From sequence record PZ452591.1: a stretch of 64,000 nt of DNA, one strand, 5' to 3'. The position numbers were made by a program, and so were the translations under genes. Below are positions 23,182 through 27,730 of this stretch, piece after piece. Under the pieces are notes generated by a model. That model searched no databases. It had not been told where the DNA came from and was given only the letters and a program-made list of their open reading frames with translations. Each line of letters opens with the position of its first letter. Within the stretch, counting starts at the first letter, position 1. Origin of the DNA: a phage.

Positions 23182-23184
23182 CAA

Positions 23185-23215
23185 TGGGGACCGAAAGGTC
23201 CCCATATTTTTATTT
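23185..23215. terminator. Bidirectional terminator between gene 54 and the convergent 96-aa ORF
   Basis: TGGGGACC-GAAA-GGTCCCCA hairpin followed by TATTTTTATTT. Confidence 0.8.
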
Positions 23216-23500
23216 ACGGAATGAAATAAAAGCAGAAACTGAAGCAACTAAACTATCTTCAATATAAACTTCAATTTTTACCGGAGCTTCTGACTCAAAT
23301 TTACCTGTTACTACACCCTGAAAAATACTTTCAGTCTGTTCTGGTTTTGAAAAATTTTCAGAAGGAAAAATTCCGAACTTTTTATCTGTTCCAAAAATTT
23401 TAATAAATTCATCGTAAACTGCTTCATTAAAAGCATTATCAGCAGGAATAACGCCTTCAACTACAAGTTCTTGACCTAAAAAGCGTAAAGAAGATTTCAT
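23210..23500 (-). CDS. Hypothetical protein, 96 aa (alt-downstream small gene)
   Basis: ATG start with GAGGAA SD and early-promoter-like element upstream. Confidence 0.7.
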   Translation of the reverse strand: MKSSLRFLGQELVVEGVIPADNAFNEAVYDEFIKIFGTDKKFGIFPSENFSKPEQTESIFQGVVTGKFESEAPVKIEVYIEDSLVASVSAFISFRK

Positions 23501-23508
23501 TTTGTGTT

Positions 23509-23561
23509 CCTCATGTTATGTCAGTAAGAATACTATAACACAACACGAGGGACTTGTAAAC
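23509..23561 (-). repeat. 53-bp direct repeat copy 1 (partner at 39034..39086)
   Basis: cctcatgttatgtcagtaagaatactataacacaacacgagggacttgtaaac versus copy 2 with about 3 mismatches. Confidence 0.8.
23525..23561 (-). promoter_or_regulatory. T4 early-promoter-like element (GTTTAC - 17 bp - TTATAGT) with leader and GAGGAA SD
   Basis: Minus strand GTTTACAAGTCCCTCGTGTTGTGTTATAGTAT...ACATGAGGAACACAAAATG. Confidence 0.6.
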
Positions 23562-25618
23562 TACATTTTGAACTTTTTAGACATTCCGTTGATGTTAACC
23601 AAAGAAGCCAAGATTTGAGAAACTTCGTTTTCCTCTTCTTTTGATTCTTCTACAAGGAATTGATTAAATCCAGCCATTGGACGAACTTCACCAGTTTCCA
23701 TTAGATGGTCTCCATCATATACTGATTCTTCTAATTGTTCAGAAGGAGGAACGATTGTACCTTCAATTAGATACTTGTTATAAGCAGTTTCTTTCATAAA
23801 GTACGTACTTACTTTATTAATCTTCAGTAAAATTCCACGCGGTAGAATAACTTCAGCTTCTGATGGAAATCCTGATAAATGACCTGGAACGATAACTTTG
23901 ATTCGCTCAGCTCCTTTAATTACCATACCCACGCTAGTTTCAGCATCTTCATTAGCATATGTAGAATGACTACCCATATGCATCAAATCTTCTGCATCAA
24001 CGGAATCTTCTCCTTCACCAGAAAATACTGCGCCGGAATCATCTAGAGCCATATAGTTTTTACCATGCTCACCGAAGATATTTGGTTTAAGCGATGTGGA
24101 TACGAAGTTCTTGAAATAAAACATTTTATTTTCAATGTTATGACGCAAAGTTTTAAAGGTAACTTCTTGTCCACGGTAAAGCGTAGTTCCTGGAGGAAGA
24201 ACTGAACCTTTAGCGAATGCAGAATCCAACGTCTCGATGTGCTTAATAGCACGTTCCATATATTCTTCACGGGTAGAATCTGGTTTACCCAAAAGGAACG
24301 AGTTCATTTCAACATATGAATCAGCACAATAATCTTCAATTACGTCAGATTCAGCCTGAGTTAATCCTTTTGGAGTTACTTCGGTGCTTGCGTATTCATA
24401 CGCCTGGGCGGCAGATTCATTAATCAATTTATAAATGCCATTCATGACGAATTGAATAATAGCTGTCTTTTCATCTGGCGTGGCTTTAGAACCTTTAACT
24501 AAATCATTAATAATTTTCTTAATAACATCAAAGCTATTAGAAATATTAATGTCAGCAAGATCGCTTAAAATTTTATCAGTTTTATAATCAAAGAATTCTT
24601 TATTCTTTAAATATTCTTGAGAACCTTGATATGTTATATCGCTCTGCAGCTTGATAGATGGATCACGTAAACGCGCATGGGCCAATGCGATATGATTTCG
24701 GAAGTTTTCTAGTTCATAATCGCTAGATTTAAAACGAGAAGCACTCCTCATACCACCAATAGCTCCTTTGCTGAAGTTTGAACCAATCTGGATAACGCCA
24801 GAGTTCATTGGTCCTTCTGCTTTATATACCGGAACTTTAGATTCAAACTCTTGATATTTCTTGGCAGCGAAGCTATCACCCTGAAGTGAAGCATCGACAG
24901 TAGAATATTGAGCTTGTGCTGCTAATCGACGACTAATTTTAGTTTTCTGAATAACAGCTTGATCCGTGCGCTTATCATTTTCTAAAGCAATAGAAGCAGC
25001 AACAGCAACAGCTTTAGGAACAGCATTACCTGTTTTAACGTCTACATAAACATCACCGACCTTTGATTCAACTTTTGTGAATAACTCAGTTGAAATAGGA
25101 GGTACACCTGGAATGTCTTCTAAATTGGCATTTTTACGGTAAACCATAATATATGCATACTTTTTATCATAATCCCAGATTTCCTTTAAAAGAACATATC
25201 GACCTGCTCCTTTAGTACGTACTAAACGGTCAGCAATAACTTGCATTTGACGAGCTGCGCCATTTGTTTTACTTTTTAGTACGCGGAATAAGCATGCGTC
25301 GATTTTATACTGCTTCATTGTTTGAAGAGCAGTATCAAAAACCGCATTAATGACGCCAATTGGATTTCCACCCAAGTTTCTAAGCTTAACCAGCGATAAT
25401 TTCTCGTTGACGCCTATCATTACGATATGCATCATTTTATCGCCTGGCTTAACGTTTTTATTTGTATCACCGCCAGAGGTGTATGTACAAAATCTAAATC
25501 CAGGAAGCACACTTTCTTCGCCGGCTTGAATAGCAAAAATTTGTGGTATTTTATGCTTAGGATTTAAGTTAACAACCGGCGCCGAAGCGCCGTCAAATAA
25601 TTCTGTAATAAGTTCCAT
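23561..25618 (-). CDS. Alt-like ADP-ribosyltransferase paralog (685 aa)
   Basis: Same length as and N-terminal 220 aa highly similar to alt (MELITELFD...); C-terminal ART-like region with LYRG, FVSTS motifs; central region diverged. Confidence 0.85.
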   Translation of the reverse strand: MELITELFDGASAPVVNLNPKHKIPQIFAIQAGEESVLPGFRFCTYTSGGDTNKNVKPGDKMMHIVMIGVNEKLSLVKLRNLGGNPIGVINAVFDTALQTMKQYKIDACLFRVLKSKTNGAARQMQVIADRLVRTKGAGRYVLLKEIWDYDKKYAYIMVYRKNANLEDIPGVPPISTELFTKVESKVGDVYVDVKTGNAVPKAVAVAASIALENDKRTDQAVIQKTKISRRLAAQAQYSTVDASLQGDSFAAKKYQEFESKVPVYKAEGPMNSGVIQIGSNFSKGAIGGMRSASRFKSSDYELENFRNHIALAHARLRDPSIKLQSDITYQGSQEYLKNKEFFDYKTDKILSDLADINISNSFDVIKKIINDLVKGSKATPDEKTAIIQFVMNGIYKLINESAAQAYEYASTEVTPKGLTQAESDVIEDYCADSYVEMNSFLLGKPDSTREEYMERAIKHIETLDSAFAKGSVLPPGTTLYRGQEVTFKTLRHNIENKMFYFKNFVSTSLKPNIFGEHGKNYMALDDSGAVFSGEGEDSVDAEDLMHMGSHSTYANEDAETSVGMVIKGAERIKVIVPGHLSGFPSEAEVILPRGILLKINKVSTYFMKETAYNKYLIEGTIVPPSEQLEESVYDGDHLMETGEVRPMAGFNQFLVEESKEEENEVSQILASLVNINGMSKKFKM

Positions 25619-25621
25619 GAT

Positions 25622-27679
25622 TTATCCTTGAACGAACTTGTAAGGCATGTTTGTAATATCTATGCAAGACGCAATAATTCCAAGAGATGATTCTACTTTC
25701 TGTTTAACATTTGATGAAACAAATGATGCAAAGTCAACTCTGTCTTCTATTTCAATATCACCTGTCATTGCAACTACTTCGCCGGTTTCCATTAAATGGT
25801 CTCCGTCATAGATTACCGATTCGGTGAGCTCTTCTGTGGTCATAACTTCAGCTTGAATAAGCTTGTTGTTAGTTTTAACTGTTCCATCATTGTAAGATGC
25901 ATCGGTTATTTTATTAACTTTGACCATTAATCCACGTGGCAAAATGACTTCCATTTCATTTGAAGGTGCTAAACTTCCACCTGGTAAAACAACATTGACT
26001 TTATCAGCCCCAGTAATAACCCATCCAATTCCAACTAAATTATCGCTAGAATTTACTAGTCCTTCATCAGTTTTATCAATAGAAACACTTAAACGCTTTT
26101 CGTCTGGTAAAACACCCACAGATGAATCAGTCATCCAGGTACCAAAAATATTTGGATATAATGATGTTGACACAAAATTTCTAAAATAAAAAACTCGATT
26201 TTTTACCAGTGCTTCATATATTGAAGGTAACATTCGTTGTGAACGATACAAAGTAATACCTTTTGGTAATCGTTCACCATTTTTAAAGGCAGAATCTAAA
26301 TTATCAATAGCTTTTTCTATATCAGATGCTGTCAAAATACTTGTACGCTCATCTGGATTATATAATCCCAAAAGAGCGTTATTTATGTCTACATATCCTG
26401 AACCTACGTATTCACGAATTCCGCGTTTTTGTGCCGGTGTGTATTTAGATGAATCTTTATTTTCGACTATAGGATGTAGTGACCATCCAGCGGTAAGAGC
26501 ATATCCACGCAATTCTCTTCGAATAATCTTTGTTTTTATTGCATTCCAAGAATTTTGTACTAACTCATTCACAGCATCTTGATTTAAATGCGAATGCTTG
26601 TTAATGTTTCTTTCTAACCAAGCACCTTTATATTTTTCTAAAGTATCATCAACTATAGAAGCAATAGTTTCTAAAGTTTTTATTGAAGTAATAGATTCTT
26701 TTCGTAATCTTTCTAAAGCTTTATTTTTTATTTCTGCATTAACATCAGATTCTTTATCTTCAGGAATTATAGAAGCTTCTCTGAATGCCATTCCAGCTGT
26801 AACACTACTAAGAGCATTCTCTAATGCAAATCCTGAAGTAGAAATAACAGTTAATTCATTAGCATCAGAAATTAAAGGAGCGTCAGCAGGTTTATTTAAT
26901 TCTGCTGCTGAAGCCTCAAATTTTTGAAACATCGGCGTTTCAAATCTAGAAGATTCCAACGACTGACTTTGCGCAATTGCTCTACGGGAAATTTTAACTT
27001 TAACGATTACAGCTTGGTCAGAACGTTTATCGTTTTCTTGCGCAATAGATGCTGCAATTGCCTCGTTTTTAGTTACTTGAGCTCCAGTATCTTTATTGAT
27101 ATAAACATCACCGACCTTCGATTCAACCTTAGTAAAGAGCTCGGTACTAATTTCCGGAACTCCTGGAATGTCTTCTAGTGATACATTTTTGCGATGTATA
27201 AGAATATATGCATACTTTTTATCATAATCCCAGAGTTCCTTAAGAAGGACGTATCTTCCACCTGAACGACTACGGATAAGTCTATCAGCAATAACTTGAA
27301 TTTGTCGAGCTTGGCCAGCAGTTTTAGACTTAAGAATACGAAGCATACAAGCATCAATTTTATACTGACGCATTGTTTGCATTGCGACAGTAAAAACTGA
27401 ATTGATATAATTAATCGGGCTTGGACCAAGACCTTTTAATTTAGCAATTGAACCTTTAGCAGTTAATGTAAAAGGAACAATGTGCATCATTTTATCGCCC
27501 ATTTTTAAATCGCGATTAGTATCACCTCCAGATGTATAGGTACATAAACGAAAGCCTGGTTGTTCAATTGCATCATCAACGTGAACTGAAAAAATTTGTG
27601 GTATTTTCTTCTTTGGATTTAAGTTTGTAATCGGAAGAGTAGTATCTTCGTCAAATAATTCTGTAATGAGTTCCATCAT
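25622..27679 (-). CDS. alt: Alt, virion-packaged ADP-ribosyltransferase (685 aa)
   Basis: Close match to remembered T4 Alt throughout (MELITELFDEDTTLPITNL ... NMPYKFVQG); two adjacent ATGs at the start. Confidence 0.93.
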   Translation of the reverse strand: MMELITELFDEDTTLPITNLNPKKKIPQIFSVHVDDAIEQPGFRLCTYTSGGDTNRDLKMGDKMMHIVPFTLTAKGSIAKLKGLGPSPINYINSVFTVAMQTMRQYKIDACMLRILKSKTAGQARQIQVIADRLIRSRSGGRYVLLKELWDYDKKYAYILIHRKNVSLEDIPGVPEISTELFTKVESKVGDVYINKDTGAQVTKNEAIAASIAQENDKRSDQAVIVKVKISRRAIAQSQSLESSRFETPMFQKFEASAAELNKPADAPLISDANELTVISTSGFALENALSSVTAGMAFREASIIPEDKESDVNAEIKNKALERLRKESITSIKTLETIASIVDDTLEKYKGAWLERNINKHSHLNQDAVNELVQNSWNAIKTKIIRRELRGYALTAGWSLHPIVENKDSSKYTPAQKRGIREYVGSGYVDINNALLGLYNPDERTSILTASDIEKAIDNLDSAFKNGERLPKGITLYRSQRMLPSIYEALVKNRVFYFRNFVSTSLYPNIFGTWMTDSSVGVLPDEKRLSVSIDKTDEGLVNSSDNLVGIGWVITGADKVNVVLPGGSLAPSNEMEVILPRGLMVKVNKITDASYNDGTVKTNNKLIQAEVMTTEELTESVIYDGDHLMETGEVVAMTGDIEIEDRVDFASFVSSNVKQKVESSLGIIASCIDITNMPYKFVQG

Positions 27680-27699: not shown

Positions 27700-27707
27700 T
27701 ATTTATA
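27700..27707 (-). promoter_or_regulatory. T4-type late promoter TATAAATA (alt)
   Basis: Exact motif on minus strand about 20 bp upstream of alt. Confidence 0.6.
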
Positions 27708-27730
27708 AAATTAAAGGCCCGAAGGCCTTT
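27700..27730 (-). terminator. Terminator-like hairpin between the 62-aa ORF and alt
   Basis: AAAGGCC-CGAA-GGCCTTT hairpin followed on minus strand by AATTTTAT. Confidence 0.6.

Follow-up and report, generated by a model that had tools for sequence, protein, structure and literature searches.

An intact second Alt-type ADP-ribosyltransferase gene beside alt in a T4-like phage, and its decay in T4

The DNA analysed here is sequence record PZ452591.1, a stretch of 64,000 nucleotides from a phage (henceforth the window), and the segment of interest is the gene 29-48-54 / alt / gene 30 part of a T4-like (Tequatrovirus) genome. Two open reading frames (ORFs) of 685 amino acids (aa) each lie head-to-tail on its minus strand (25622..27679 and 23561..25618), with a gap of only 3 nt between them. 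The upstream ORF is alt, the gene of the ADP-ribosyltransferase (ART) Alt, and the downstream one is a paralogue that we call altD (it appears as "Alt2" in GenBank MZ501089 and as "alt.-2" in the T6 record). We consider, with a probability of roughly 60%, that altD is a functional and ancient paralogue of alt, the product of which would be packaged, trimmed by the prohead protease gp21 and injected as an arginine mono-ADP-ribosyltransferase with substrates unlike those of Alt.

An earlier reading of this DNA from its letters alone (the sequence-only reading) had proposed two full-length Alt-type ARTs in tandem, and BLASTP, PF03496 and phrog_802 matches agree with it. The upstream protein shares 98.1% of its residues with T4 Alt, and Alt and altD align with each other end-to-end (300/718 identities, 42%, E = 6e-161, BLASTP); altD is also homologous to T4 Alt over its entire length (41% identity, 719 columns, E = 1e-157, BLASTP). 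The PHROG family phrog_802 ("Alt-like RNA polymerase ADP-ribosyltransferase") spans both proteins fully (altD residues 1-685, E = 1e-256), and the PF03496 (ADPrib_exo_Tox) scores of 121.7 bits for Alt and 72.0 bits for altD (residues 416-620) compare with a curated gathering cut-off of 23.4 bits. PF26846 is listed in the precomputed annotations of the family, the Pfam match reported here being PF03496 alone, and neither Alt nor altD had a match in NCBIfam or PADLOC. Both genes also occupy the position typical of the T4 Alt family, i.e., between gene 54/alt.-3 and alt.1/gene 30 and behind a late promoter. The earlier description of both ORFs as 685 aa long and starting with MELITELFD is right for altD; in alt the first ATG gives MMELITELFD and 685 aa, and the second ATG (27676), which is the start annotated in T4 and has the better spacing from the GAGG Shine-Dalgarno sequence, gives a protein of 684 aa preceded by an extra Met codon.

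The ART motifs LYRG/LYRS and FVSTSL are present in both ORFs where the sequence-only reading had placed them: Alt carries LYRS (476-479), FVSTSL (501-506) and EMEVILPRG (574-582), and altD carries LYRG (480-483), FVSTSL (505-510) and EAEVILPRG (587-595). Loss of the catalytic Arg or Glu in the second copy, which that reading had named as grounds for abandoning the proposal, was looked for and not seen, as the R / S-T-S / E-x-E set of altD (R482, S507, E587, and E589) is invariant in a family alignment of 43 sequences with 27-75% identity to the query. The EAE of altD lines up with the catalytic ExE of VIP2 and CdtA. In T4 Alt the variant "E577A" is catalytically dead (PMC11404850), the numbering of that paper being off by one from the ExE 574/576 of the RefSeq protein. 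The full altD protein found no PDB chain at E <= 0.01 in sequence searches and its ART domain alone gave weak matches (E 0.016-0.5); therefore, structure prediction was needed. The AlphaFold2 model of altD (pLDDT 79.4, pTM 0.74) comprises an N-terminal alpha/beta part up to residue ~195, an all-helical part (~200-415), the ART domain (420-625), for which it predicts the C3/VIP2-like fold of PF03496, a disordered stretch (631-659) and a short terminal helix. The N-terminal domain resembles GNAT-fold acyl-CoA N-acyltransferases at the level of the fold only, and sequence searches gave no support for this likeness, so that GNAT membership is no more than a lead.

The two paralogues have diverged unevenly along their length. 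In the global alignment 160 of 237 residues are identical within aa 1-238 (68%), compared with ~25% in aa 240-415 and ~40% in aa 416-650, much as the sequence-only reading had described it (a similar N-terminal region of ~220 aa followed by a diverged middle and a diverged ART domain). Synonymous divergence (dS) between Alt and altD is saturated in all three regions (1.2-1.9), and non-synonymous divergence (dN) amounts to 0.28 in the N-terminal region, 0.88 in the middle and 0.68 in the ART domain. As dS is saturated while dN is low, the similarity of the N-terminal region is preserved by selection. Recent gene conversion was considered as its source and is ruled out by the saturated synonymous divergence of that very region (dS 1.75). 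Within the ART domain, the turn before the ExE (the ARTT turn) reads HLSGFPSEAE in altD and GSLAPSNEME in Alt, and the long loop after the STS has diverged too. In C3/iota-type enzymes both the ARTT turn and the post-STS loop contact the substrate.

Signals for packaging and processing are shared by the two proteins. T4 Alt is a prohead core protein with ~40 copies per head (PMC9026906) that is cut by gp21 after ITE-6 and LTE-619 to give a mature form of 68.2 kDa (PMC5694885), and we compute a mass of 68,245 Da for its residues 7-619. Like Alt, altD starts with MELITE, and its LEE (629-631) sits at the position homologous to LTE-619; across the family (n = 43) Glu631 is present without exception and Glu6 is conserved to at least 90%, and the block YDGDHLMETGE that follows the C-terminal cut motif is identical in Alt and altD. 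At the level of sequence motifs altD has the gp21 sites near both termini that characterize the T4 Alt family, and its predicted mature form consists of residues 7-631 (~69.2 kDa).

Transcription of altD would depend on the promoter of alt. The T4-type late promoter box ahead of alt, TATAAATA at 27700-27707, is the sole match on the minus strand between 16.9 kb and 33.4 kb, and between alt and altD sequence scans found neither a promoter (late or sigma-70-like) nor a terminator. The absence of a promoter of its own, already remarked on in the sequence-only reading, holds for altD, which nevertheless has its own ribosome-binding site (AAGGA). Since altD lacks its own promoter and any preceding terminator and carries its own AAGGA, the simplest interpretation is that alt and altD are transcribed together from the late promoter, as the sequence-only reading had proposed. 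Upstream, a terminator-like hairpin (27713..27730) would part the transcription of gene 30/alt.1 from the alt unit.

The tandem arrangement is widespread. A 4.9-kb query over both genes found matches to 80% or more of its length in 393 of 530 phage records, where RefSeq uses the label "Alt-like RNA polymerase ADP-ribosyltransferase (x2)", and 402 records contain the diverged part of altD (aa 240-685) at an identity of 95% or more. The gene is intact in both T2 and T6 (98.7-99.4% identical to the window copy), and bas37_0032 of phage Bas37/KarlGJung (MZ501089, 2021 BASEL collection), which is annotated as "ADP-ribosyltransferase Alt2", shares 677 of 685 residues with the window protein. The gene is already known as an annotated gene and is the majority state in Tequatrovirus, so that the novelty of the arrangement implied by the sequence-only reading has to be given up. 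Base composition over the region is uniform (31-41% G+C) and thus shows no sign of a recent foreign insertion.

Strong purifying selection acts on altD: compared with its SHFML-11 orthologue we counted 40 synonymous versus 5 non-synonymous differences, and compared with that of WL-3 84 versus 22, with dN/dS at 0.03-0.06, the same as for alt. The marks of a pseudogene, i.e., a broken frame or relaxed selection, are missing, as the ORF is uninterrupted and intact in ~400 records and dN/dS is as low as just given. In the records of Shigella phage sb1 and of WL-3, the downstream alt gene and genes 48 and 54 are split into short coding sequences (CDSs), the sb1 copy having one internal stop; these breaks are probably sequencing or assembly errors, because neighboring essential genes are fragmented too. 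Outside the genus, the Dhakavirus-like CUA3 (PP410321) has a tandem pair of 694 and 707 aa, the downstream copy of which is the reciprocal best match of altD (338 versus 94 bits in the cargo region), and the upstream copy best matches alt. As the CUA3 copies match by position, the duplication is older than the Tequatrovirus/Dhakavirus split. The upstream 694-aa paralogue of CUA3 is an intact ORF, but its CDS annotation covers the last 213 nt only. Tandem Alt duplications have been described in print for 44RR, RB49, T4, JS98, Bp7, ZZ1, and Ac42 (PMC1524935; PMC4177764).

T4 has lost the gene. The sequence-only reading had noted that T4 has only the short ORFs alt.-1, alt.-2, and alt.-3 here, which is correct (alt.-3 is a separate gene, intact both in T4 and in this phage), and had suggested that the downstream copy may be the intact version of a gene decayed in T4. 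This too is confirmed: altD amounts to an intact alt.-1 plus alt.-2, with 94.6% identity to T4 Alt.-1 over residues 1-56 and 96.4% identity to T4 Alt.-2 over residues 62-116. At the DNA level T4 is collinear with the window from 27760 down to 25271 and then skips to 23580. Both end-points carry the 9-bp direct repeat CTAAAAAGT, of which T4 retains one copy, and the T4 state is evidently a 1,699-bp microhomology deletion between the repeats. In addition, one nucleotide is missing from an A-run in T4, and it is this loss that separates alt.-1 from alt.-2 within the remnant; the final 12 codons of alt.-2 are read out of frame over the junction, through the closing bases of altD and into the alt.-3 promoter. 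The two corresponding families, phrog_23015 and phrog_15247 (both "unknown function"), accordingly are fragments of altD (residues 1-56 and 62-117), i.e., annotation debris and not genes. After repair of the frameshift, only 3 residues in 115 codons distinguish the T4 remnant from altD (synonymous differences, Sd, 14.5; non-synonymous differences, Nd, 3.5), and hence the decay is recent and confined to one lineage, even though the duplication itself is old.

The direction of this change is given by the outgroup and the junction, which make the full-length gene ancestral and the T4 state the deleted one. An "apparent insertion in alt.-2", as noted in the T6 GenBank record, is ruled out, as the intact form carries two copies of the 9-bp repeat, one at each end, against one in T4, and the outgroup genus has a full-length positional orthologue. 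The RefSeq note on T4 alt.-1/alt.-2 speaks of an old duplication of "the first part of gene alt", and both notes describe the locus imprecisely. Of 486 records, 91 contain the T4-type junction in full, and many of these are environmental isolates (HY03, SG1, ACG-C40, the slur phages, and ESh30/36), so that the deletion is a circulating allele; an origin as a laboratory artefact, which we also considered, is ruled out by the identity of the junction across these records. Given that a single recent deletion, mediated by microhomology, has removed the gene from T4 and about one-fifth of its sequenced relatives, altD would be an accessory effector and not a core one.

The upstream gene is variable as well. 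A second alt allele, found in T2, T6, RB14, RB51, WL-3, and Bas37, encodes 697-698 aa and is 100% identical to the Alt of the window over residues 1-246 and over the final ~90 residues, with ~48% identity at 247-600 (window 25877-26938), the stretch that makes up the helical and ART cargo. In tblastn searches the T4-type cargo of alt was present at >= 90% in 175 records and the T2/T6-type cargo in 319, with 34 more at 80-90%. This dimorphism suggests cassette exchange, which would proceed by recombination in the conserved flanks. T4 Alt is reported to be required to evade the Mokosh type I defence, and ectopic T4 Alt complements in this respect but Bas37 Alt does not (10.1101/2025.11.20.689424, 2025 preprint). 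By sequence comparison Bas37 Alt is of the T2/T6 type, and the difference in complementation is therefore a difference between the two alt alleles. The same study provides, in the supplementary rows of its HIDEN-SEQ transposon data, the only experimental data on altD found in our literature searches, on which its authors do not comment. In the Bas37 library in E. coli K-12, insertions in Alt2 occupied 116 of 164 TA sites (saturation 0.71, "Intermediate", mean count 44.5), compared with 164 of 179 TA sites in Alt ("Non-essential", mean 203.6) and means of 170-345 in neighboring genes (10.1101/2025.11.20.689424). Such a depletion of Alt2 is compatible either with a contribution to fitness or with toxic truncated products.

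Taken as a sequence of events, the proposed function would run as follows. Late in infection, alt and altD would be transcribed as one message from the TATAAATA promoter, altD being translated from its own AAGGA. The conserved N-terminal region would direct the protein into the prohead core beside Alt, where gp21 would trim it after Glu6 (ITE) and Glu631 (LEE) to a form of ~69 kDa, as the conserved motifs suggest, and the mature enzyme would then be injected together with the phage DNA. In the new host it would use NAD+ to mono-ADP-ribosylate arginines of host proteins by means of the R-S-ExE residues, which are in place on the predicted fold. We infer that its substrate set differs from that of Alt because the two lineages parted before the genera did, their helical middle, ARTT turn and post-STS loop have diverged, and the alt alleles set a precedent at this very locus.

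The same similarities could instead mean that Alt2 is a redundant second dose, which modifies the substrates of Alt (Arg265 of RNA polymerase alpha and others) and serves only to increase or to buffer the quantity of enzyme injected. Such a role would suit the like architecture, catalytic motifs and predicted processing of Alt and Alt2, the dispensability of Alt2 in T4-type phages and the promiscuity of T4 Alt itself (PMC5512222). We nevertheless regard it as unlikely, since Alt and Alt2 have been maintained as separate lines, each with orthologues of its own, from a time before Tequatrovirus and Dhakavirus diverged, and since ~25% identity in the middle, ~40% in the ART domain and an ARTT turn of HLSGFPSEAE in place of GSLAPSNEME exceed the divergence between the two alt alleles, which already alters function against Mokosh; strong purifying selection would also be unexpected for a merely redundant copy. 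A role inside the producing cell, with Alt2 as a non-packaged late-phase ART that resembles ModA/ModB but acts later, could be reconciled with the fact that only ~40 Alt copies fit per head (PMC9026906). We give it little credence, because the N-terminal 238 aa, ITE-6, the invariant Glu of the C-terminal cut and YDGDHLMETGE are all conserved and would have no obvious role in a protein that stays out of the virion. To our knowledge, ModA and ModB are without the N-terminal region and the propeptide motifs of Alt, and altD would be expressed from a late promoter beside baseplate genes. T4 itself proves that the locus can decay, and disrupted copies exist in some records, e.g., the single internal stop of sb1 (a record with other split genes that may hold sequencing errors), and from this one might see in altD a pseudo-enzyme or a decaying duplicate on its way to the T4 state, or a purely structural component of the core. 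Yet a 685-aa ORF intact in ~400 genomes, dN/dS of 0.03-0.06, catalytic residues that are all invariant and a repaired T4 remnant with 3 aa changes in 115 codons, which points to a recent decay in one lineage, make this very improbable.

Several points weigh against the proposal of a packaged and injected enzyme with targets of its own. The synthesis, packaging, cleavage, injection and activity of altD are all things that we infer from its sequence, and the idea of different targets draws on divergence between sequences only. Our literature searches found no virion proteomics for an altD-carrying phage, no functional study of the second paralogue and no report of RNA polymerase alpha (Arg265) modification by altD. 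The under-representation of transposon insertions could mean toxic truncated products or artefacts of mapping and counting, and Alt2 showed no conditional effect in two HIDEN-SEQ comparisons (log2 fold change, log2FC, 0.11 and 0.19; 10.1101/2025.11.20.689424). Finally, ~19% of the sequenced relatives, T4 included, do without altD, and any function must be dispensable on common hosts.

T4 is the reference for phage takeover of the host, and the textbook picture is that of the "three ARTs of T4" (Alt, ModA, and ModB). Most natural T-even phages, T2 and T6 included, encode a fourth, well-conserved ART of the Alt family that is deleted in T4, and it is owing to this deletion that Alt2 escaped the functional work carried out on T4. 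The gene itself is no discovery, as hundreds of genomes have it annotated and one gives it the name Alt2; what is added here is the mechanism and recency of its decay in T4, the strong constraint on it, the conserved processing signals, the positional orthology across genera and the two-slot structure of the locus. The alt locus can be viewed as a two-slot effector site with cassette-like contents, the first slot being dimorphic and the second either present or absent. The Mokosh difference between T4-type and T2/T6-type Alt suggests that differences in cargo have consequences, which makes it reasonable to include Alt2 in a screen for substrates or for anti-defence activity. Going further, we tentatively raise the possibility, doubtful as it is at present, that Alt2 targets a component of host defence or stress response and not RNA polymerase, and that combinations of alt alleles and alt2 set which defences a T-even phage overcomes; if true, the T4 deletion would explain some of the differences in sensitivity to defence systems between T4 and T2/T6. 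A bolder extension would be that the GNAT-like N-terminal domain common to both proteins is more than a handle for packaging and forms a second module, enzymatic or ligand-binding, in its own right.

Upstream of the pair lie a 62-aa ORF (alt.1, PF24647) and the DNA ligase gene, and downstream lies the 96-aa alt.-3 (DUF5498). The promoter with the hexamers TTTACA/TATAGT lies directly after the stop codon of altD and ahead of alt.-3, which has in it a strong early-type promoter of its own following a late-transcribed gene and might thus be expressed both early and late. The alt.-3 orthologue of Bas37 (bas37_0031) fell from a mean of 169.7 to 25.3 (log2FC -2.70, adjusted p 0.02) in one conditional comparison of the HIDEN-SEQ tables. 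No tRNA genes or Rfam families were found anywhere in the 64-kb window. The coordinates of all features are collected in Table 1.

Table 1 Features of the alt/altD region, with positions in the window, strand and the basis of each assignment
Feature	Position	Strand	Basis
Terminator-like hairpin AAAGGCC-TTCG-GGCCTTT plus T-run, overlapping the alt.1 stop	27713..27730	-	read from sequence; not listed by the automatic terminator scan
Late promoter box of the T4 type, TATAAATA, 20 nt ahead of the start of alt	27700..27707	-	motif search
alt, T4 Alt orthologue with "type 1" (T4-like) cargo allele	25622..27676 (ORF to 27679)	-	98.1% aa identity; PF03496 3e-35; full-length phrog_802 match
altD Shine-Dalgarno sequence AAGGA, 6 nt before the ATG, within the last alt codons	25625..25629	-	read from sequence
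altD (Alt2), 685 aa plus stop codon	23561..25618	-	ORF, BLASTP, PF03496, phrog_802
altD N-terminal alpha/beta domain and helical tail, aa 1-238, including the MELITE propeptide (ITE ending at residue 6)	24905..25618	-	68% identical to Alt
A5 run (A4 in T4)	25455..25459	-	DNA alignment
Left copy of the 9-bp direct repeat CTAAAAAGT, end-point of the T4-type deletion	25271..25279	-	DNA comparison
altD all-helical middle, aa 239-415, candidate substrate/adaptor module	24374..24904	-	~25% identity to Alt; model
altD ART catalytic domain, aa 416-631, ending at LEE 629-631	23726..24373	-	PF03496, alignment
altD catalytic codons R482; S507; E587; E589	24173-24175; 24098-24100; 23858-23860; 23852-23854	-	
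altD predicted C-terminal propeptide, aa 632-685, after Glu631, holding YDGDHLMETGE	23564..23725	-	motif conservation
Right copy of the direct repeat CTAAAAAGT (9 bp), 9 nt before the altD stop codon	23572..23580	-	DNA comparison
Sigma-70/T4-early-like promoter TTTACA-17 nt-TATAGT, extended -10 TG	23532..23560	-	10/12 matches
alt.-3, 96 aa, DUF5498, last gene of the minus-strand block	23210..23500	-	PF17602, 5e-64
Bidirectional terminator hairpin in the alt.-3/gene 54 interval, the first terminator reached from the alt late promoter	23184..23205	.	terminator scan

Among known systems, T4 Alt (gpAlt, NP_049811) is the closest in design, as altD likewise has an N-terminal domain, a helical middle, an R-S-ExE ART domain and a C-terminal propeptide, and is of the same length class, with the same gp21 motifs, operon, PHROG 802 and PF03496 assignments; it differs in its 41-42% identity overall and in its diverged middle region and active-site loops. 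The T4 ORFs alt.-1 and alt.-2 (NP_049810 and NP_049809; phrog_23015 and phrog_15247) correspond to the first 116 codons of altD at 95-96% aa identity. Alt2 of Bas37 and the unnamed or "Alt-like" CDSs of T2, T6, SHFML-11, and ~400 records are the same gene in the same position and with the same 3-nt spacing, although Bas37, T2, and T6 pair it with the other alt allele, whereas the window pairs it with the T4-type one. Farther away, 44RR, RB49, JS98, Bp7, and the Acinetobacter phages ZZ1 and Ac42 also carry two or more Alt-family genes side by side in the interval from the baseplate genes to the ligase gene, but they belong to other genera and their sequences are more diverged, one copy of ZZ1 being split into two ORFs. 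The R-S-E toxins (C3, VIP2, iota, CDTa, and Vis) share 15-26% identity with altD and have no counterpart of its phage-specific N-terminal, helical and propeptide regions.

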